A stretch of 45,377 nt of DNA from Escherichia virus TH13. The notes beneath the pieces are model-generated. The model saw only the letters and a list, made by a program, of their open reading frames with translations. It was not told where the DNA came from and made no database searches. How positions within the stretch are numbered: position 1 is the first letter of the stretch; the number at the start of each line of letters is the position of its first letter. The stretch lies in sequence record MT446391.1; one strand, given 5' to 3'. Of this stretch, positions 6,835-40,238 are shown piece by piece. The translations under genes were made by a program, and so were the position numbers.

Positions 6835-7935
6835 ATGTCTTTAACAGTGTTCCAGCGTAAACTCGTTACCGCGGTTACGCAAATGATCCCCGACAACCTG
6901 AACGTTTTCAACGCCGCCGCCAATGGCGCTGTTGTTCTCGGTACTGGTGAAGTGCTGAAGGACGTTATTGAGAAAATGTCCGTAGGCTTGATCGCCAACC
7001 TCGTTACCGACCGTAACGCCTACGCCCCCGTCGGCACTCCGGCGACCGCGAAAGTGCTGGCGCGTATGCTAACCAACTCGGTTAACCTTTCCGCAAAAGT
7101 GGGTCCGGTAGCAATCACTAAGGCTATGATGGCTAAGATCGAAACCAACGTTAACAGCGTTGCGGCTGAGATTGCGGCACAGGCTACTCAAGCGATTATG
7201 CTGCACTACCTGAAAGCTGGTATCGGCGCAAGTAAAGCGGCGATCGAAAGCAACGCAGCGGCAAAATACACCCAACCGGCGCGCGTTGACGGCGTTGGCG
7301 GTCGTACCTTCCCGACCCTGGCAGACTTCCCGCTGGCGGCTTCTAAGTTCGGCGATCAGGCGTCTTTGATTAAGTCTTGGTTTATGGACGGCGTTACCTG
7401 GGCAAACTTCATTGCGTACCAGGCACTCCCTTCCGCTGAACAGGTATTCGCAATTGGCGATCTCCAGGTAATGGGTGATGGCCTGGGCCGTCGCTTCATT
7501 ATCTCCGATGCCGCTGCCGATGCTATGGGGGCGGGTAACATGCTGGGTCTGGTCCCTGGCGCGGTTGCAGTTACCACCAACGGCCTCGATATGCTGGCGC
7601 AGGAGAAAGGCGGTAACGAGAACATCGAGCGCTGGTGGCAGGGCGAGTTCGACTTCAACGTGGCTGTTAAAGGCTACCGTCTGAAGGCGTCCGCTCGAAC
7701 CCCGATCGAAGGTGTGCGCTCGTTCAAACTGGACGATATTACCACTTCCGCTAACTGGGAACTGGACCAGGGCCAGGTAGACAACGCACCGGCAACCGTT
7801 CAGGATGTTGGCGCTGTGGGTGATGGCGATACTAAAGGTCGTCGTAAGACCCAGGCCGCACAGGCAGTGCCTACCCGTCACATCAAGGAAACCGCGGGCG
7901 TACTGGTTACGCTGACGGCTACCACCGCGTCTTAA
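6835..7935 (+). CDS. major capsid protein
   Basis: 366 aa, RBS aaagga, follows scaffold gene and is followed by a strong terminator; canonical position. Confidence 0.7.
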   Translation: MSLTVFQRKLVTAVTQMIPDNLNVFNAAANGAVVLGTGEVLKDVIEKMSVGLIANLVTDRNAYAPVGTPATAKVLARMLTNSVNLSAKVGPVAITKAMMAKIETNVNSVAAEIAAQATQAIMLHYLKAGIGASKAAIESNAAAKYTQPARVDGVGGRTFPTLADFPLAASKFGDQASLIKSWFMDGVTWANFIAYQALPSAEQVFAIGDLQVMGDGLGRRFIISDAAADAMGAGNMLGLVPGAVAVTTNGLDMLAQEKGGNENIERWWQGEFDFNVAVKGYRLKASARTPIEGVRSFKLDDITTSANWELDQGQVDNAPATVQDVGAVGDGDTKGRRKTQAAQAVPTRHIKETAGVLVTLTATTAS

Positions 7936-31035: not shown

Positions 31036-33327
31036 TTACTTCCTGTACCTGTACATAATGTCGCCTTCGGCGGCAAGTGGGAAGCCTTTCGCCCAAATAG
31101 GCAGGTCGCACATCAGCGCGCAAAGCTCCTCGGTCGTGTAGTCGTCGGTGTCCGGCACTTCTGTGATCAATTCGTCGTGTACTGACAGGACGATTTCATA
31201 TCCGGCAGCTTCAACGCCTGGCATGGACCATGCGAGAATATCGCGGCACAACGCCTGTACGATGTTCTCCGTCAGTTTGCCGCCGTAGGTGTACTGGAAG
31301 CCCCACTGGCGCGTAGTCTGATTCTCGCCCTGGTATTTGATGCGGGTGCTGGTGCGCTTCTTGCCGGTGTCTTCGTCAATCTCGGTCGTGACCGACAGCG
31401 CGATGCCTGGGTAGCTCATGATGCGCCCGGACGGCAACTCAATTTTCAACCACCACCCAGCGGCGTTCGGGTCGTCGCGCTCCTCGTCGAAGGTTGGGTC
31501 GTGCTTCGCCTTCGTGCGCACAATCTTAAGCGCTTTCCTACCGTCCGGGCGAACGTTCGCGCCGGCCCAGTATGCTTTGCCAGGATTGCGGATCGCACAT
31601 AACACCGCGTCCTCAAGCTCGGCCCAAAAGGCTACCGTCTTCGGGTGAGCCTCGCGCCACATACGTTTGATTGCGTCACAAGTCAGCCATACGTTTTTCG
31701 GCAGTATGTATGTTGGGCGCTCGTCCTTCTTACCGGGCTTCGGCGGGCGCTTCGCTTCGTTAATGCGGGCGTACTCATAACCACGTTTCGCCGCGGCCCA
31801 AATGTGATCCGGGAACGTGCCTTTCATCACGTCCGCCATAGTGTAAAGGTCGAGGCCCAGGTTTTTAGCGAACTGCAAGAACGCCGCGACGCCGCCACCA
31901 TAGCCCAGTCCCAATTCACACGCCTTACCGATCTGGCGCAAGTCTTTGCGGTTGGCTTTGATGTAATCCGGGTCAAGGCCGAACATCTTACCGGCAGTCT
32001 CGCAATAGATATCGCGACCGGCCTTAAACACCATTAGCGCGGTTTTCTCGCCCGCGATCCAGGCAAGGCCACGCCCTTCCACGTTGGAGTAGTCCGCGAC
32101 GACAAACTTCTTGCCCTTCGCCGGAATGATGCACCCACGAACGGTCGAGGCGGTCAGCTTAGATATGTCATACGCCCAGTGCGCGGTCCCGCGTAACAGG
32201 GAGTTGATGCCGTTGGTGAGCATGTGCGACCGCACCCAAAACGAGACGTCGCTCTCGCCTTCGCGGCGCTTAATCTTCCCTTCGTGGTCGTCGCTATACT
32301 CGCCGCGTGCCAGGTTTTGCGGCTGGAAGCCTTTACCTGCCCAGCGCAGCGTGCGCTTTGCACCACCATACTGAAGACACCCACGGCGGCGACCATCTGC
32401 GGATAAGCCATTAACGAGCGGATTGTACTTAGTCGAGGCCGTTGATGACGCGCCGAGGCGCATTTCGATAAGCGCTTTGCCTTCGTCGGGGAAGTCCGTG
32501 TCTTCAAGCAGGTCGTTAAGTGTGGATTTCTGCGCGTTGTGGATTGTGAACGCCGGGGCGATATCACGCAGGATTGGCAGGAAGTCATTGCCTGTCAGTT
32601 TACCACCAAATCGCTCCCAGGCTTCCTCCTTCAATTCTTCCTTATGCGCCTGCACCGCTTTGATCGCGGCGTTCGCCAGGTCAACGTCCACATAGAATCC
32701 GCGGTCGTTGATCAACTGGTCAATAAGCAGTATCTCGTCTTCCTTCGGAGTATTACCCCAGTCCGGTATGCGCCAGTAGACCTCACGCATCGCGATAATA
32801 TCCAGCGCGGCATATCGCAGAAATTTGGCCCATTCTTCAGGGTGAGTCTCGCGCGTGTAGCGGCGTATTTTGTAGGTCTTAGGGGTAGGCTTACAGAATC
32901 GTTTGATCAGCGCCTTGCCTGCCTTATCCTTCGCGTGCTCTGCGTCAACGCCCAGCACCTGACACTGCATATCGAGGCTACCCGGCAGCGCGTGCCGAAA
33001 GGCCATAATCATGGTATCTTCGATCTGGCACACTGGCAGGTCAATGCCCCACTTCTCGCGAATGACCAGGCGGTCAAACAGGAGGCCGTTAGCCATCACG
33101 ATTTTTGCTTTCTTGCGGCATACCTGGCGGAGCGCCTTGCGCAGTTCACGCGGCATTGTTGGGGATTCAGTGGCATCCCATGTCTGCACGCGGCCCTCGT
33201 CGATGGCGTATGTGCAAATCATAATCTCGGTGGTTGGGTGCTCTGCGTAGGCGTACGCCCCTACTTTCTTCAGGTCAACCCCGCTGAATGTCTCGGTGTC
33301 GAGAAACAGGCGTTCGAAGTCTTTCAT
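31036..33327 (-). CDS. DNA polymerase, family A (Pol I-like) with N-terminal 3-prime-5-prime exonuclease-like region
   Basis: 763 aa; LSVHDELITEV (motif C-like HDE), ELGLGYGGG motif B-like region; last 26 codons are duplicated in the tandem repeat. Confidence 0.85.
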   Translation of the reverse strand: MKDFERLFLDTETFSGVDLKKVGAYAYAEHPTTEIMICTYAIDEGRVQTWDATESPTMPRELRKALRQVCRKKAKIVMANGLLFDRLVIREKWGIDLPVCQIEDTMIMAFRHALPGSLDMQCQVLGVDAEHAKDKAGKALIKRFCKPTPKTYKIRRYTRETHPEEWAKFLRYAALDIIAMREVYWRIPDWGNTPKEDEILLIDQLINDRGFYVDVDLANAAIKAVQAHKEELKEEAWERFGGKLTGNDFLPILRDIAPAFTIHNAQKSTLNDLLEDTDFPDEGKALIEMRLGASSTASTKYNPLVNGLSADGRRRGCLQYGGAKRTLRWAGKGFQPQNLARGEYSDDHEGKIKRREGESDVSFWVRSHMLTNGINSLLRGTAHWAYDISKLTASTVRGCIIPAKGKKFVVADYSNVEGRGLAWIAGEKTALMVFKAGRDIYCETAGKMFGLDPDYIKANRKDLRQIGKACELGLGYGGGVAAFLQFAKNLGLDLYTMADVMKGTFPDHIWAAAKRGYEYARINEAKRPPKPGKKDERPTYILPKNVWLTCDAIKRMWREAHPKTVAFWAELEDAVLCAIRNPGKAYWAGANVRPDGRKALKIVRTKAKHDPTFDEERDDPNAAGWWLKIELPSGRIMSYPGIALSVTTEIDEDTGKKRTSTRIKYQGENQTTRQWGFQYTYGGKLTENIVQALCRDILAWSMPGVEAAGYEIVLSVHDELITEVPDTDDYTTEELCALMCDLPIWAKGFPLAAEGDIMYRYRK

Positions 33328-33494
33328 TGCTTTATCCTCACTACGGCGTCAGCGCTGCCGATCATGGAGAAGATGCCGTCGGACAGGGCGATCTCTTCTC
33401 CATTGTTGCGAATCTCGGCAACTGTGAAATACTCGCCCAGCAATTTGGACCATACCTGCATTCCGACTTTTACTTCGCTGGCTTTAATACGCAT
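33324..33494 (-). CDS. small hypothetical protein (56 aa)
   Basis: ATG with RBS aggacaatgaaaa; stop overlaps polymerase start (ATGA); below track cutoff; coordinates approximate. Confidence 0.35.
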   Translation of the reverse strand: MRIKASEVKVGMQVWSKLLGEYFTVAEIRNNGEEIALSDGIFSMIGSADAVVRIKQ

Positions 33495-33508
33495 TTTTCA
33501 TTGTCCTA

Positions 33509-33533
33509 TTAAAAAGCCCGCATTAAGCGGGCT
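33509..33533 (-). terminator. rho-independent terminator after SSB-like gene
   Basis: minus-strand agcccgc-uuaau-gcgggcu hairpin followed by U5. Confidence 0.55.
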
Positions 33534-33552
33534 TGAATAGTGGGCTTTGCCC

Positions 33553-34338
33553 TTAACGGCGGCGACGTTTACGTGGCGCTTCGTCTTCGTCGTCGTCCTC
33601 ATCTTCGTCATCGCGTGGCTTACGACGTTTGCGAGGTTTTTCATCTTCCTCATCGTCGTCATCACGACGTTTTGACTTTTTGGACTTGCGCGGCTTGTCA
33701 TCTTCATCATCGTCATCACGACGTTTTGACTTTTTGGACTTGCGCGGTGCTTCGTCTTCGTCGTCGTTGTCGTTGTCCAGGTCTTCATCGGAGCAAGAAG
33801 ACCCGCCACCTCCGAAGGCTTCGCCGTCTTCACGGAATCGCAGACCCAGCAAGCCAGCCCCGAGACCTTTGCCGTTGGTATTGTTCCATGCCCAAATATC
33901 AAGGGACACGTTGCAATAACAACCGGAGTAGATCTCCTGGCCTTCGATCTCGTCGCCTTCTACGTTCAGACCTTGTTCCGTCTGCTTCTCGCCGAGTGAC
34001 GTTTGAATGATCGGCTGTTTGAACGATTTGGCGTTGATATACAACATGCCTTCGAATTCTTCGGTTACTTCGTCGCGCTCGTCACCGTCGCGAACTGCGC
34101 ATTCCTTAGAATCCTGGGCGTAGTGGCGGTCCATCCACTTATCGGCATTCTTCTCGGATTTCAGCTTATCGGTGAGCACTGCGCGCGCTGCCGCTTCCAC
34201 TTTGTCCACCTGCGGATCTTCTTTATCCAGAAGAATAACGGCACGGTATGCCGGTTTTTGACCATCCTGTTTAGGGGTATCACGTTCCCAAATTTTAAGG
34301 AAGCATACGCGCACATTTTTCAGGTTGACTTTAGCCAT
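33553..34338 (-). CDS. ssDNA-binding-like protein with C-terminal charged-repeat tail
   Basis: 261 aa from ATG (MAKVNLKNVRVCF...) with RBS gaggaa; N-terminal OB-fold-like region; C-terminal 18-aa repeats KPRKSKKSKRRDDDDEDD. Confidence 0.5.
   Translation of the reverse strand: MAKVNLKNVRVCFLKIWERDTPKQDGQKPAYRAVILLDKEDPQVDKVEAAARAVLTDKLKSEKNADKWMDRHYAQDSKECAVRDGDERDEVTEEFEGMLYINAKSFKQPIIQTSLGEKQTEQGLNVEGDEIEGQEIYSGCYCNVSLDIWAWNNTNGKGLGAGLLGLRFREDGEAFGGGGSSCSDEDLDNDNDDEDEAPRKSKKSKRRDDDDEDDKPRKSKKSKRRDDDDEEDEKPRKRRKPRDDEDEDDDEDEAPRKRRRR
33659..33747 (-). repeat. in-frame coding tandem repeat (54-bp period) in SSB-like gene
   Basis: tcatcacgacgttttgactttttggacttgcgcgg repeated twice. Confidence 0.6.
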
Positions 34339-34428
34339 TTTCCAATTCCTCATTTTCACATGTATCGGGGTTATTGTGAGCCACCCCGTCCGGCTTGGTT
34401 GCTAATCTACTTGGTTGCGCCTGAGCGG

Positions 34429-34671
34429 TCAAGCATTTTTATTAAAAAGATTTCGTGTCACGTAGTTGGTGGCGTTCTCGATCCAGCTTAACGGCGGGCG
34501 TTCGATGTTCTTTTCCACCCAATCGACGGCAACTTCGCTATAGCCGTCATCCAGCCAGCGGGTCGGATGGCGAATCATCCACGCCACCATTAACACGCCT
34601 TGCACGCAATGCAGGATAAAGCCCAGCGCTCCGAGCAAAAACATCAATAAGATTGCGAATACTTTATTCAT
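34429..34671 (-). CDS. small membrane protein
   Basis: 80 aa; N-terminal hydrophobic helices (VFAILLMFLLGALGFILHCVQGVLMVAWMI). Confidence 0.5.
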   Translation of the reverse strand: MNKVFAILLMFLLGALGFILHCVQGVLMVAWMIRHPTRWLDDGYSEVAVDWVEKNIERPPLSWIENATNYVTRNLFNKNA

Positions 34672-36094
34672 TGCTTAAGTCCTCGTCAGTAGCTTCCGAC
34701 CACGCAGGGCGCGGGTCGTCGATTGGTGCTAACACCGGTTTGGCAGGTGCGCGCGTGATTTTATCACACAGCTTCGCCCACACTTTCGGTTTTTCGTCCT
34801 TCAGTACCTTCTCGGCATCCGTAGGGCTGAGCAATGTTTCTTTGTACATCACATCGCGCTTGATCCGGGCCTTCGTGAAGATTTCAATAACTTCGCTCTC
34901 GTCCGCCCACTTACGGATCCCTTCCTTACCGGCAACCATCTTGAGGCCCAGCGATTCGCCATCGCCCGCCATAACCGCTTTGAATACCGCGGACTCGATA
35001 GCCTTGATGTGCTGGCGCATTGCGTCAAGACCTTCATATGCCTTGCGCAGTTCCGCCGCGCTCATAGCGCCTGGTGCCGCTTCTTTCTCACCACGCTTCG
35101 CACGTCGTGCCGCTTTGCGGGCTTCGCGGGCCATATTGCGGTCGTGATTGGCGCATTCTTCCTCTGTCGCAATACTCACGTCGTCGCCCAGGTCTTCGTC
35201 TGTTGCCGTTGGTGGGGTCATCGTGTCGATTGCAGCCTTAGCGCGGGCGCTACACTGATCCGCAAATCTGCACCACTGGCACGCATCGACGCTGGGCCGG
35301 AAGTCTGCGCGGGTTAGTCCCTTTTTGCCGCGGGCGTACGCTTCCAGGGCGGCGATAGCACGCTTGGACGCAAACTTCGCGAATATCTCCAGGGCTTCTA
35401 CAGAAATATCCCACTCCGACGCCCCGCCGCAATACGGCTGGAAGATAACCAGGCGCACGGTCGTAATATCGTACATGGTTTGCAGCTTGCGCAGCAGGCC
35501 CAGCGCATACAACATAAGCTGTTTGTTTTCTTTCGCCTCGACCTTATGTCGTCCCGTCTTCAGGTCGCCAACAATCAGCATGTACGTGCCGTCGGTCTTC
35601 TTCATGACCATGACCATATCGGCAGTACCGAACGTCTTAACCCGGTTGCCGTCGATCTCGAAGCCGGAGTGTAGGACGCGGGTAAGATCGGCGCGCATCT
35701 CAAGCTGAACAAACTCCGCCACTTCGAGGAGCGGTCGCCAGTGGTCGATGTATGCGTCGCACTGTTTCACCATATCGTCGTTGACCAGTACGCCACCTTT
35801 CGGTGCTTTCGGGTGCGCCTTTACCGGTCCCTTACCTTCGTTCTCTACGTAGCACCCTTTGTACGTCTTCGCTGTTATTCCCTTCTCACCGGCGATAATG
35901 CGGTTGAGCACGACTTCAGATACGGTGTGCATACTCGTACCGTTAATCGCCGCCTGCCCGGATTCGTTCGGGATATCTTTTTCTACCACCAGGGCGGCAG
36001 GGCAACCCATCCATTTTTTAGCACCGGATGGGCCGAGTAAAGAGTGTTCCGTGTTGCTACCGGATTGCGTTTTACGTTTTGGTTTAATCGCCAT
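34664..36094 (-). CDS. PD-(D/E)XK nuclease, Cas4/RecB-like with C-terminal Cys cluster
   Basis: 476 aa; N-terminal LLGPSGAKKWMGCP, core IVGDLKTGRHK, C-terminal CQWCRFADQC cysteine cluster as in Cas4/AddB-type Fe-S nucleases. Confidence 0.65.
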   Translation of the reverse strand: MAIKPKRKTQSGSNTEHSLLGPSGAKKWMGCPAALVVEKDIPNESGQAAINGTSMHTVSEVVLNRIIAGEKGITAKTYKGCYVENEGKGPVKAHPKAPKGGVLVNDDMVKQCDAYIDHWRPLLEVAEFVQLEMRADLTRVLHSGFEIDGNRVKTFGTADMVMVMKKTDGTYMLIVGDLKTGRHKVEAKENKQLMLYALGLLRKLQTMYDITTVRLVIFQPYCGGASEWDISVEALEIFAKFASKRAIAALEAYARGKKGLTRADFRPSVDACQWCRFADQCSARAKAAIDTMTPPTATDEDLGDDVSIATEEECANHDRNMAREARKAARRAKRGEKEAAPGAMSAAELRKAYEGLDAMRQHIKAIESAVFKAVMAGDGESLGLKMVAGKEGIRKWADESEVIEIFTKARIKRDVMYKETLLSPTDAEKVLKDEKPKVWAKLCDKITRAPAKPVLAPIDDPRPAWSEATDEDLSNE

Positions 36095-36712: not shown

Positions 36713-37231
36713 TTAGTCTTCCAGTTCGAAATAAGTCTCGACGATTTCTTTTAAATCTTTGTGGAAGTCTTCGACGTCGTCGTCTTCCAGCTTGGCGATT
36801 GATTTGATCTCGAACGCTTCCAGCAGGTCGTCAAATTCGTCGTTAGCATCGTCGTCATCGCCACCGGCGATAATCGCGGCGTACTGCTTGATCTCGTCGC
36901 GCATCTCTGCCAGCGGATCGGCATCTTTCTTCCCTTTGCCTTTCGCCGGAGCTTTTTTACCCTTCGCCGGTTTTTCGTCTTCGGCTTCTTCATCGTCGTC
37001 ATCTTCTACGACTTCTTTTTTGGCCTTACCTTTAGCCGGGGATTTTTTAGATTTAGCCGGTTTTTCGTCTTCGGCGTCATCGTCGTCATCTTCGACAACT
37101 TCTTTTTTGGCCTTAGACGGCTTCTTATCTTCCTGTTTACCAACGGCAGCGCCAACGGTTTCATAATGCTTTGCAATGGTTTCCAGTGCTACTACGCCGC
37201 GAGTGATCAGGTTTACGATTTGCTCAAACAT
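36713..37231 (-). CDS. acidic charged-repeat protein, first gene of early arm
   Basis: 172 aa from ATG (MFEQIVNL...) with RBS ggagatatacc; two 30-aa repeats EVVEDDDD-AEDEKPAK-KK-PAKGK-KK and an acidic C-terminal helix; track ORF extends upstream without RBS support. Confidence 0.6.
   Translation of the reverse strand: MFEQIVNLITRGVVALETIAKHYETVGAAVGKQEDKKPSKAKKEVVEDDDDDAEDEKPAKSKKSPAKGKAKKEVVEDDDDEEAEDEKPAKGKKAPAKGKGKKDADPLAEMRDEIKQYAAIIAGGDDDDANDEFDDLLEAFEIKSIAKLEDDDVEDFHKDLKEIVETYFELED
36966..37114 (-). repeat. in-frame coding tandem repeat (90-bp period) in acidic early gene
   Basis: gccggtttttcgtcttcggc...cttcttttttggcctta repeated twice. Confidence 0.6.
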
Positions 37232-37973: not shown

Positions 37974-40238
37974 ATGAGCTTGATTAAATTCGCTGTAACA
38001 AAACCCGCTAAAAAAGGCGAAAAAGCCAGGGCGGAAAACTTCCAGATGACGACCGATGAGTTTTTCGAATTTATCAAAGATGCGAAAGAAATCTCCTCGG
38101 TGCATATCAACAAGACGGAAGATAAAGCCGAGTATGCGCGCCGCAAGCGTAAGGCCGATGGCATCGTGGCGTATACCAGTGACGGATTGCGTCGTAAGAC
38201 CAGTGCGGTGGACCGCTCGATCCTGTTCTTTGATATTGACCGCACCGACACCCGCACCCTGCGCCGCTGCCGTAAGGCGTTCATCGACGCGGGACTGGAA
38301 CATGTATTTCACACCACAACCGGCGACCGCCACCCGCTGAAAGGTGGCACGCGTTGCGCTCGTTTCCTGGTGCTCACCGACAAGCCTGTACCGGCGGAAG
38401 ACCTAGGCCGCGTACAGTATGCACTGTTACACCAACTGGGCCTGTCAGATGTGGACTTCGATGATTGTACGAAAGACACAAACCGCCTTATGTACCTACC
38501 ACACCAGCAGTCCGTTGTTAAGTGTCACTACGGCAAACGTGCCCGCGTCCGTCGTCTGCTTCGCCTGGCGGATAAGCTGGGAGTGGAAAAAGAGGAAGTA
38601 CGACGCGAACTGACCCAGGGCGATGACGGCGTGGCTGACGGTATTCTGGATTGGTGCTTCCAGGCGGGATTCGAACCGCTGTCGTCCGGTCGTGGTTATG
38701 AAGTGCCATGCCCGAACGAACACCTGCACAGTGGTGAAGGGTCCACCGCTATCATGGTTAAGGATGGCGAGATCCGTTTCAAGTGTATGCATACCGGCAA
38801 CGAGTGTTGCTCGGAGCTGAACAGACACCAGCACCTGGCGCTACGTCTTATCGGGATCCCGGACCACCTGAACGTCGAACCGCACAACATGTCACGTAAG
38901 CAAATCGCCGCCATCCTTCCAGGACTGGACGACGAGGAAGTGGAATCGTGCTATGCGCATATCGTTGATGCGGTCGGAGACGGCGACGAGTACGGCGGAT
39001 GTACAGATGCAGACCTGGACAACGAGCCGGTTGCGCTGTTCAGTAAGCACGACCCGATCATCGAGGGGCTGATTAACTTCAAATCGACCTGGTATCTTGC
39101 TGGCGAGTCGAACATCGGTAAATCGTTCTACGTGCTGGGCCAGATGGCGTCAGTATCTGCCGGTATTCCGTTCGGCGGCGCGAAGGTCGTCCAGTGCCAC
39201 AACTTCTATTTCGACGCGGAAGGTGGTGAAGCCTCCAACCAGCGTAAGGAAGCATTGCAGATCAAATATGAGCACGACCTGGACAAGCTGCACATTATCG
39301 ATCTGCAGTCACGCGGCTGGGATATCACCAGCAAATCCGGCTTGCGTGAAGTTATCAGCTTTATCAACCGCACCGCTAACGGCGAGCCGGTTGGCCTGGT
39401 GGCGTTCGACTCACTCAACCAGACTGTCGCGTTGCGGTCAGCCGATGCTAAACCGTTCGACGAGAACAACGCCAGCGATATGGGCGAAGTGGTCAAAGCG
39501 CTGAAGGCTATTGCGGAAAACACAGGCGGCAGTGCGGGAGTCATCCACCACCCGGCGAAAGGTGCAAACGGCAGCAGATCTCCCCGCGGGTCCGGCGCGC
39601 TGCATGGTGCTGTCGATTCCGCGTTCTTCCTGGAGCAACCGGACGACAATCAGCCGGGCCAATTGAACCTGTACCATGAGAAGGCACGTAACGGCATCAA
39701 GCAAGCGCCGCGCGGCTTCGTCCTGCTTAAGTGCAAGGTTAAGGTGGATCTCCGCAAGTCAGAGGCGTTCGAATCGCACCAGTCCACCAGCACCGGGCCT
39801 GACTTCGGTGATGTGGTTGCAGGATGGGACGTCAAGCCGATCGCATCAACGCCACGCGACGAGACTCTTTACCTCGTACCTGTCGCCCTGGCACCGTTCG
39901 CTATTGAGCAGGCGAAGGCCGCGGGTAAGGCAGCAGTTAAGGAAGAGAACCCCGCAGGACCGCGCAACGAAAAAGAGAAAGTGCTTTATGCGGCGCTGGA
40001 AAAACTGATGGAAGATAACCCGGACCATACCGGATTCAGTAAATCGGCAATCGTCCGCCAGGCTGGACTTGCGAAAGGTGGCACATCGACGAAGGCAATA
40101 GACGATATGGTCGAGCGCGGCGTGCTCGGTTTCTATACAGATCCGCACACCGGGGCCATCTATGGGTCATCGAATATCGTCATCAAAACGAATATACCCA
40201 TCACGCTTTCGGCGACCGATGATGATTTAAAAGATTAA
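37974..40238 (+). CDS. DNA primase/helicase-like replication protein
   Basis: 754 aa; Zn-binding-like CPNEHLHSGEGS...CMHTGNECC; C-terminal RecA/DnaB-like ATPase segment (Walker A-like AGESNIGKS, ...VAFDSLNQ...). Confidence 0.6.
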   Translation: MSLIKFAVTKPAKKGEKARAENFQMTTDEFFEFIKDAKEISSVHINKTEDKAEYARRKRKADGIVAYTSDGLRRKTSAVDRSILFFDIDRTDTRTLRRCRKAFIDAGLEHVFHTTTGDRHPLKGGTRCARFLVLTDKPVPAEDLGRVQYALLHQLGLSDVDFDDCTKDTNRLMYLPHQQSVVKCHYGKRARVRRLLRLADKLGVEKEEVRRELTQGDDGVADGILDWCFQAGFEPLSSGRGYEVPCPNEHLHSGEGSTAIMVKDGEIRFKCMHTGNECCSELNRHQHLALRLIGIPDHLNVEPHNMSRKQIAAILPGLDDEEVESCYAHIVDAVGDGDEYGGCTDADLDNEPVALFSKHDPIIEGLINFKSTWYLAGESNIGKSFYVLGQMASVSAGIPFGGAKVVQCHNFYFDAEGGEASNQRKEALQIKYEHDLDKLHIIDLQSRGWDITSKSGLREVISFINRTANGEPVGLVAFDSLNQTVALRSADAKPFDENNASDMGEVVKALKAIAENTGGSAGVIHHPAKGANGSRSPRGSGALHGAVDSAFFLEQPDDNQPGQLNLYHEKARNGIKQAPRGFVLLKCKVKVDLRKSEAFESHQSTSTGPDFGDVVAGWDVKPIASTPRDETLYLVPVALAPFAIEQAKAAGKAAVKEENPAGPRNEKEKVLYAALEKLMEDNPDHTGFSKSAIVRQAGLAKGGTSTKAIDDMVERGVLGFYTDPHTGAIYGSSNIVIKTNIPITLSATDDDLKD

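Follow-up and report, generated by a model that had tools for sequence, protein, structure and literature searches.

The 45,377-nucleotide (nt) stretch of Escherichia virus TH13 DNA analysed here (MT446391.1; the window) includes on its minus strand a gene at 33553..34338, comprising 261 codons and a TAA stop, for a 261-residue protein. [quoted passage not shown] Tails of SSBs organise replication and repair, and the textbook tail is acidic, mimics single-stranded DNA (ssDNA) and docks partner proteins. The question raised by this locus is what a tail of alternating charge does on such a protein. The reading preferred here, with a probability of about one half, is that it is the length-variable blocky-polyampholyte regulatory and recruitment tail of the SSBs of its clade. 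The gene is 100% identical to that of Escherichia virus TH11 (MT446389.1), and values given for the TH11 SSB therefore apply to the window gene.

The core of the protein is ordinary, and the interest lies in the tail. The gene was defined from the open reading frame (ORF) listing and from matches to PF10991 and PHROG 112, and its product is almost certainly an SSB of the Enc34/DUF2815 branch, of the T7 gp2.5 type; it is probably also the strand-annealing protein of a Dhillonvirus. The match to PF10991 (Enc34_ssDNA-bd, formerly DUF2815) scores 110.3 bits against a gathering score of 26 (E = 1e-31) and covers protein residues 3-194 and profile positions 2-173 of 176, and that to PHROG 112 ('Gp2.5-like ssDNA binding and annealing protein') has E = 6.6e-55. 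The OB-fold ssDNA-binding domain (residues 1-177; 33808..34338, minus strand) was delimited by AlphaFold2 (AF2), Foldseek and phmmer alignment to PDB chains, of which 4klk, 4jg2 and 5odj matched at ~1e-11 and 5odk matched also. In the AF2 model, for which 74 homologues served as input, the predicted local distance difference test (pLDDT) value is 92-98 per 10-residue block through residue 170 and above 90 for 163 residues, and it is ~50 from residue 178 onward (47-60 in the tail). Foldseek against the PDB returned, all at probability 1.0, the DUF2815 structures 4klk (E = 3.6e-13) and 4jg2, the Enc34 SSB with ssDNA (5odl, 2.2e-12) and its further entries 5odj and 5odk, and T7 gp2.5 (1je5, 1.9e-6), and beyond these no match below E = 0.5. 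The predicted SSB-like OB fold is thus borne out by both the family and the structural searches, with the structure prediction specifying a gp2.5-type fold. An assignment to the E. coli-type SSBs (PF00436) was rejected: PF10991 was the only family reported at E up to 0.01, structures of that type appeared in the fold search only at E > 1, and the C-terminus is RKRRRR with no DDDIPF-like tip.

In the phmmer alignment, residues that contact ssDNA in the Enc34 SSB are kept at four of seven aligned positions (Trp150=W149, Asn154=N153, Arg112=K104 and Tyr30=F13) and replaced at three (Tyr156 by N155, Tyr37 by T21 and Lys46 by A30). Near the replaced contacts, W151 adjoins N155, W17 is close to T21 and K28 is close to A30. 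The family, the fold and the SSB assignment, including that of a Dhillonvirus orthologue, are already known.

Charge pattern of the tail and its distribution

In the disordered blocky-polyampholyte tail (residues 188-261; 33556..33777, minus strand), acidic and basic blocks alternate, four of each, and the basic ones are Pro-initiated. The last 77 residues of the protein are EDLDNDNDDEDE-APRKSKKSKRR-DDDDEDD-KPRKSKKSKRR-DDDDEEDE-KPRKRRKPR-DDEDEDDDEDE-APRKRRRR; the protein end is also given as FGGGGSSCSDEDL-DNDNDDEDE, continuing from the first APRKSKKSKRR as above. According to Tandem Repeats Finder, 33650..33767 contains 2.2 copies of a 54-bp repeat, with 87% matches and a score of 187. This array corresponds to two tandem 54-bp copies at 33644..33697 and 33698..33751 (no strand assigned), which are 87% identical and each encode a PRKSKKSKRR block with the adjoining acidic block; a repeat search also found a looser four-copy family of 28-nt repeats spaced by 54-60 nt. 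The original prediction had the tail built from 18-residue repeats with a 54-bp period at 33659..33747. The period stands and these coordinates lie inside the array, but only two of the four units are near-identical 18-residue repeats, the other two having diverged. The RKRRRR ending that it gave was found as the Arg-rich tip APRKRRRR (residues 254-261; 33556..33579, minus strand), which does not vary among 15 of the 16 complete orthologues read from Dhillonvirus and is kept in every directly read locus except the most divergent one.

Charged residues make up a fraction of 0.81 of the tail, basic residues account for 36% and lie in four blocks, and the net charge is -7. The charge-segregation parameter kappa is 0.59 for the 77 residues as compared with 0.12 after shuffling (z = 9.7), a value reached by none of 2000 shuffles; segregation of charge is far beyond chance. 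With disorder and strongly segregated opposite charges, the tail fits the description of a charge-patterned (blocky polyampholyte) intrinsically disordered region (IDR). AF2 predicts no secondary structure in it except a one-turn helix at D184-L187. A single alpha-helix of the ER/K type was rejected, as no helix was predicted beyond residues 184-187, the acidic blocks are Asp-rich and Pro occupies the junctions. An AT-hook array was rejected as well, there being no GRP core in the TH11 SSB tail.

The tail was compared with those of the family by a search with the OB domain only against 1.84 billion cluster representatives (50% clusters), which recovered 2,213 members of the family with E of at most 1e-3. 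Tail types were counted in the 121 parsable sequences among the best 150 of these. Acid-only tails occur in 112 of the 121, with a median length of 23 residues and a median net charge of -7, and 82 of the 112 have a hydrophobic or aromatic end, including DDIPF-like ends. Basic blocks are present in only nine. The family hallmark is a short, purely acidic tail with a hydrophobic or aromatic end, and the window SSB departs from it; the claim that its tail is atypical for SSBs is upheld by these counts.

A full-length search found ~100 homologues, down to ~27% identity, that have the same alternation with 1-10 basic blocks. Judged by these sequences, the mixed-charge tail is a conserved trait of a large clade and not an oddity of one isolate. 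The SSBs of Jerseyvirus SETP3 and Kagunavirus fFiEco03 end with SVDDLEDDEDETPRRERRRNR and NDLEDDDDEKDEAPRRERRRR, respectively; in Jerseyvirus and Kagunavirus there is one unit each and the end is PRRERRR(N)R. Three units are present in the SSB tail of Serratia phage Otaku. Three types of protein end were distinguished: a basic end (RRRRR) in Dhillonvirus, Guernseyvirinae and numerous metagenomic relatives; an end that is acidic but lacks a hydrophobic residue (NYEDDEE, RNRDED) in others; and an acidic-hydrophobic end (DDDVA, DDDDI, DDDDVV), which is kept in a more distant group.

Unit number and selection on the tail

The SSB gene is matched by 154 phage records, 139 of them named Escherichia, with 90-97% identity among the matches listed, and the records of matching phages that were opened are classified as Dhillonvirus. 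Full-length genes among the 60 matches listed span 675-798 bp, always a multiple of 3. In 16 loci read directly, the number of basic blocks is mostly four; it is three in HK578, EK99P-1 and Envy and two in EP23. Length variants among the Dhillonviruses are in frame and are mostly deletions of whole units. Variation of the repeat number between isolates, which had been anticipated and for which a comparison across related phages had been proposed, was therefore found as a range of two to four units.

One record appeared to depart from this regularity. The annotated SSB vB_EcoS-22664B1_061 (P0005; L024, MZ234008.1, 380..1189) switches to an alternative frame past ...DDDLGD. Following an indel of 1-2 nt, however, the other frame still has the canonical tail and stop in intact form, so the frameshift is most likely an error of the record, and the protein was rejected as a natural tail-less SSB. 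A similar frameshift is seen in P0007, a protein from a Logan contig that serves as a 50%-cluster representative. In another metagenomic contig (L015, IMGVR_UViG_3300045988_003101), the SSB tail is cut at the contig end and continues as AVSYTHLRAHET, which we take to be a translated Illumina/Nextera adapter contaminating that contig and not the window.

Such a tail could also reflect misassembly of the repeat, or another gene that overlaps in a different frame. Frames overlapping the gene are open at 33498..33902 (minus strand), 33540..34010 (plus strand) and 33629..33919 (plus strand), so that alternative frames run through the tail, and P0005 and P0007 read into one of them. Open alternative frames are, however, expected from (GAN)n/(AAR,CGN)n codons, and the intact tail and stop of 22664B1 speak for the canonical frame. 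The identity to the TH11 record and the four-unit layout in many independently assembled Dhillonvirus genomes indicate that the repeat is not an assembly artefact. An artefact, which was one of the two conditions on which the prediction could have failed, is thus scarcely credible.

Selection on the tail was estimated from 17 Dhillonvirus genes. The ratio of nonsynonymous to synonymous divergence (dN/dS), summed over non-independent pairs of the 17 sequences and, for the tail, over a low-complexity region, is 0.14 in the tail as compared with 0.066 in the OB domain. The proportion of synonymous differences (pS) is alike in the two parts, 0.32 and 0.31, respectively. This equality argues against a function at the nucleotide level such as that of iterons. 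The 54-bp repeats, with their CGTCGT...ACGACG inverted repeats, might otherwise be regarded as iterons, as an origin or as a regulatory structure of DNA or RNA. Tandem DNA repeats do lie here within a replication gene, a short hairpin was flagged at 33654..33669 on the plus strand, and ori-lambda is located within gene O. Yet the tail shows no extra nucleotide-level constraint, isolates from which whole repeats are deleted are viable, distant lineages conserve the charge pattern of the protein and not the DNA sequence, the hairpins follow trivially from the juxtaposition of Arg (CGT) and Asp (GAC) codons, and there is no turn of GC skew at the repeats. The iteron or origin reading was rejected on the equal synonymous divergence and the absent skew feature, and a nucleic-acid element of any of these kinds is very improbable.

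What is conserved in the tail is the block pattern, the reading frame, the net negative charge and the terminal block. Kappa has z of at least 4.0 in all 98 of 98 homologue tails, with a median of 0.55 as compared with 0.15 after shuffling. A Pro lies within three residues at 343 of 354 acid-to-basic junctions, typically as (D/E)(D/E)-[A/K/R]-P-[R/K/S]-[R/K], counts that are inflated by the shared ancestry of repeats and homologues. Over tail lengths of 24-168 residues (n = 112) the net charge changes by only -0.087 per residue; the units are hence near-neutral, and the total charge remains about that of a classical acidic tail. The net charge of the OB domain is -8 in the TH11 SSB and -3 as the median of 114 homologues, and its median is -6 in the mixed-tail cluster representatives, of which there are only nine, against +2 in the 112 acid-tail representatives. 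An acidic OB domain in the mixed-tail clade counts for a role of the basic blocks in DNA contact or in compensation.

Expansion of the repeats could also have been near-neutral. On that account, slippage in purine-rich DNA generates charge-neutral units that persist, the internal units are a passive spacer, and only the proximal acidic-Leu motif described below, perhaps with the terminal block, matters. It would accommodate the 2-4 copies among phages that are otherwise 90-97% identical, the sufficiency of one unit in Jerseyvirus and Kagunavirus, and the near neutrality of the units; the repeats are also more alike within a protein than between lineages, which suggests repeated independent expansion. 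It does not agree well with the dN/dS of 0.14 at normal synonymous divergence, nor with conservation of the block pattern, the junction Pro and the net charge down to ~27% identity, and no out-of-frame natural variant was found, the sole annotated frameshift (22664B1) looking like a record error. We therefore consider near-neutral expansion unlikely, if deserving of attention. Taken together, the charge segregation, low dN/dS, junction Pro and steady negative net charge argue for a functional tail.

The acidic-Leu motif and the replication module

Just after a Gly-rich linker, FGGGGSSC, the SSB has an acidic-Leu motif, S183-D-E-D-L187 (33778..33792, minus strand), which contains the only tail helix of the AF2 model; every clade member examined keeps it in the form A[TS]D[DE]DL. 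The complete set of six-frame ORFs of the window, 47,793 aa, was scanned for [ST][DE][DE]DL or [DE][DE]F[DE][DE]L. Five matches were found, all within four replication proteins. Apart from the SSB, these are a divergently transcribed helicase-primase (37974..40238, plus strand), whose extreme C-terminus is ...SATDDDLKD (motif 40215..40229); a DUF2800 PD-(D/E)XK nuclease encoded upstream of the SSB (34664..36094, minus strand), with a C-terminal ...EATDEDLSNE (motif 34676..34690) and an internal TATDEDLGDD (35189..35203); and a small acidic protein, phrog_3127 (36713..37231, minus strand; 172 aa from M61, in an ORF that extends to 37411), which has no Pfam family and includes DEFDDL within NDEFDDLLEAF (36824..36841). 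The same scan found no such motif in the family-A DNA polymerase (PolA) encoded downstream of the SSB (31036..33327, minus strand).

On the minus strand, the genes follow in the order small acidic protein, DUF2800 nuclease, 80-aa ORF, SSB, 56-aa ORF, PolA, VRR-NUC and SNF2 helicase. The layout is the same in Oekolampad, and the DUF2800/SSB/PolA order recurs in 10 other lineages; a place beside the nuclease and polymerase in a replication module agrees with membership of the PF10991 family. The motif, in a relaxed form, is present in every Dhillonvirus locus and in a divergent relative (L016; helicase VATDDDLAD, nuclease EATDEDLE, SSB TATDDDLGDD). In SETP3 and fFiEco03, the helicase-primase ends with TEGDLE/TEDDLE and the nuclease with TEEDLE/SEEDLE. 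The motif also occurs in the nuclease and SSB of Otaku and in four metagenomic lineages that differ in their SSB ends. Its distribution in sequence suggests that the acidic-Leu motif is probably a shared docking peptide.

In two distant lineages with mixed-tail SSBs and a Prim-Pol/DUF3987 primase (L018 and L020), the motif is absent from the primase, and the SSB tip is acidic-hydrophobic. The first gene of the rightward replication operon in these lineages (L018 4088..4522; L020 4050..4487) encodes a protein of 144-145 aa with an acidic C-terminus and an AT-hook-like segment, EAPRGRGRPPK or EAPRRRGRKPK (PRGRGRPPK belonging to L020). The end of this protein resembles that of the SSB of the same locus, EEEDDVV and DDDDVV in one and EEESLA and DDDMA in the other. 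In L020, a metagenomic relative, an inserted Tad2-like (PF11195) gene at 7254..7517 separates the genes of the DUF2800 nuclease and the SSB.

These partners allow the tail to be read with the polarity reversed: the acidic (S/T)DEDLxx C-termini of the helicase-primase and nuclease would find their receptors in the basic blocks and Arg-rich tip, and the tail would be a multivalent landing pad that concentrates both enzymes on SSB-coated ssDNA. In every AAA_25-type helicase-primase lineage examined, a conserved acidic-Leu peptide does form the end of both partners, Dhillonvirus and Guernseyvirinae have an SSB tip that is basic rather than acidic-hydrophobic, and the lineages with an acidic-hydrophobic tip that were examined are the two whose primase has no motif. 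The SSB, however, carries the acidic-Leu motif too, which fits a shared third-party site better, and the helicase and nuclease tails are no different in lineages whose SSB tip is acidic (NYEDDEE, RNRDED); within the AAA_25-helicase lineages, no co-variation was found between the type of SSB tip and these tails. A tail that acts in this way is rather improbable.

The phrog_3127 protein resembles the SSB tail in containing tandem alternating Lys/acidic units, KKPSKAKKEVVEDDDDDAEDE-KPAKSKKSPAKGKAKKEVVEDDDDEEAEDE-KPAKGKKAPAKGKGKK, which are followed by an acidic, helical-looking C-terminal part. Its length is 142-180 aa among Dhillonviruses, differing by whole units. Homologues are encoded at the equivalent position in Jerseyvirus, Kagunavirus and Otaku, homology in Guernseyvirinae being assigned by eye only. 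When the TH11 small protein was compared by BLASTP with its syntenic 144-aa counterpart in L018, no similarity was detected, and homology with the L018 and L020 proteins is therefore not claimed.

The SSB gene starts with ATG at 34338 and stops with TAA at 33553..33555 (minus strand). Direct reading of the sequence placed a Shine-Dalgarno element, GAGGAA (34346..34351, minus strand), 7 nt upstream of this ATG, and MAKVNLKN is the N-terminus of all orthologues compared. The ATG is favoured over an upstream GTG at 34359 because of the position of the Shine-Dalgarno element and the conserved N-terminus. Some GenBank annotations use the in-frame GTG (34339..34359, minus strand) as the SSB start and so add 7-9 residues, as for Oekolampad gp43 and L017 6974..7783.

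Directly 3' of the SSB stop is a terminator-like hairpin (33506..33540, minus strand) with an 8-bp GC-rich stem, AAGCCCGC/GCGGGCUU, laid out as AAGCCCGC-UUAAU-GCGGGCUU and followed by UUUAAU. Its folding energy is -24.6 kcal/mol (z = -5.1). A consensus terminator scan did not call it because its U-run is interrupted. Transcripts that read through to the 56-aa ORF and the polymerase gene may be attenuated at this hairpin. The conserved 56-aa ORF (phrog_10102; 33324..33494, minus strand) lies between the hairpin and the polymerase gene, and may be the orthologue of a cloned 'SECphi4 56aa protein of unknown function' mentioned in the Stokar-Avihail preprint.

Proposed role of the tail and comparison with known systems

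In the preferred reading, the tail was built by tandem duplication of a unit composed of an acidic block and an x-Pro-(Arg/Lys)-rich block, of which 2-4 are present between isolates and 1-10 between lineages. Its first element, the acidic-Leu motif (S/T)-D-(E/D)-D-L, would be a docking peptide. As the motif of the SSB recurs at the C-terminus of both the helicase-primase and the DUF2800 nuclease, all three proteins probably compete for or share one site, which by analogy with T7 only would most plausibly be on the DNA polymerase. The acidic blocks may still act in the classical way, mimicking ssDNA and shielding the surface that binds DNA. In the free protein, the basic blocks and the Arg-rich tip would pair electrostatically with the acidic blocks in cis; on ssDNA, they would pair with the DNA backbone and, in trans, with the tails of neighbours, and salt-sensitive cooperativity between SSBs, or condensation, would result. 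Slippage could add or remove units without loss of function, since each of them is close to neutral in charge.

Published data on related systems are consistent with separate steps of this proposal. Removal of the acidic tail of the Enc34 SSB leads to binding of double-stranded DNA (dsDNA; PMC5686142), and in T7 the gp2.5 tail is a regulator of binding that also makes contact with replication partners (PMC10359462). In the C-terminal domain (CTD) of RNase E, alternating charge blocks drive an assembly that depends on nucleic acid (10.1101/272286), and E. coli SSB undergoes phase separation (PMC7584906).

Several points weigh against the proposed regulatory and recruitment role. The motif is internal in the SSB and C-terminal in the helicase-primase and nuclease. 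With two units in EP23 and one in Jerseyvirus, most repeats are dispensable and might contribute little. The structural comparison in the study of SECphi4 omits the flexible C-terminal residues (Figure S2A legend; 10.1101/2022.08.27.505566). To these are to be added the non-independent pairs behind dN/dS, the shared ancestry behind the junction counts and the nine representatives behind the OB-domain charges.

A bolder version makes the tail an electrostatic scaffold. The number of units would tune SSB cooperativity or ssDNA-dependent condensation, the basic blocks and tip would be multivalent receptors for the ...DEDL ends of the helicase-primase and nuclease, and the phrog_3127 protein would co-assemble. 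We regard this version as doubtful; if true, it reverses the polarity of the rule that an acidic SSB tip docks on a basic patch of its partner.

In siphophages of enterobacteria that make up a large clade, among them Dhillonvirus, Jerseyvirus, Kagunavirus and numerous metagenomic relatives, the acidic tail is replaced by a repeat-built tail of alternating charge, often with a basic end. Literature searches (DUF2815; SSB with polyampholyte; gp2.5 with basic or alternating tails) returned no account of a mixed-charge SSB tail, and no description was found in the searchable literature of a mixed-charge, repeat-built, length-polymorphic tail or of the shared acidic-Leu motif. The natural alleles with 1-10 units are a ready series for relating charge patterning and valency to SSB cooperativity, ssDNA/dsDNA discrimination and partner recruitment, and the motif common to SSB, helicase-primase and nuclease offers a concrete handle on the wiring of the replisome. 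The SSB is also of practical relevance, as that of Dhillonvirus is a trigger of the Retron-Eco8 defence and members of Dhillonvirus are included in the BASEL collection.

The SSB of SECphi4 (QJI52528.1) is an orthologue from the same genus, its gene having 93% DNA identity over 91% of the query. Co-expression of this SSB activates Retron-Eco8 toxicity, an observation that counts for the SSB identity of the window protein, and escape mutants map to the SSB gene (10.1101/2022.08.27.505566). It is the only member of the mixed-tail clade with experimental data, and the published model covers residues 1-186.

The SSB encoded by ORF6 of the Enterobacter/Hafnia phage Enc34 (5ODJ, 5ODK and 5ODL) belongs to the same PF10991 family and has the same fold, in which the OB core is accompanied by N-terminal strands and by one long helix. 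Like the TH11 SSB, with which it shares ~22% sequence identity, it has a disordered, net-negative C-terminal tail. The Enc34 tail, however, has 29 residues, 16 of them acidic, without basic blocks and with the end WDEDEV (from translation of a cloning primer), whereas the TH11 tail has 77 residues, four basic blocks and an Arg-rich end; the negative charge of the TH11 OB domain is a further difference.

T7 gp2.5 (1JE5) is of the same fold class as the TH11 SSB (Foldseek probability 1.0) at 13-15% identity. By analogy, similar roles would be expected, namely ssDNA coating, annealing and, by means of a flexible tail, coordination of the polymerase and helicase-primase. The helicase-primase of T7 has an acidic tail that resembles that of the T7 SSB, which parallels the sharing of the acidic-Leu motif. 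The gp2.5 tail is, in contrast, short and purely acidic with an essential aromatic end, and that of TH11 a blocky polyampholyte with a basic end. The E. coli-type SSBs (PF00436) share the modular logic of an OB core, a disordered linker and an acidic partner-docking motif, and their intrinsically disordered linker (IDL) influences cooperativity and condensation. They differ in the OB subtype, in a linker of Gly, Pro and Gln instead of charged blocks, and in the C-terminal position of the acidic-hydrophobic DDDIPF tip.

Outside the SSBs, the closest likeness is to the CTD of Caulobacter RNase E, the scaffold of BR-bodies (ribonucleoprotein bodies in bacteria), and to Ddx4-type IDRs, in which disordered blocks of ~10 residues alternate in charge and the pattern is conserved, the sequence only poorly so. 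In RNase E, as in the SSB, the charge-block region is attached to a nucleic-acid-binding protein, with no homology between the two. The RNase E CTD extends over several hundred residues, and its phase separation has been demonstrated, whereas for the SSB tail phase separation is only a hypothesis. The blocks of the SSB tail, at 7-11 residues, are shorter than those of the RNase E and Ddx4 type, and each basic block starts with x-Pro.

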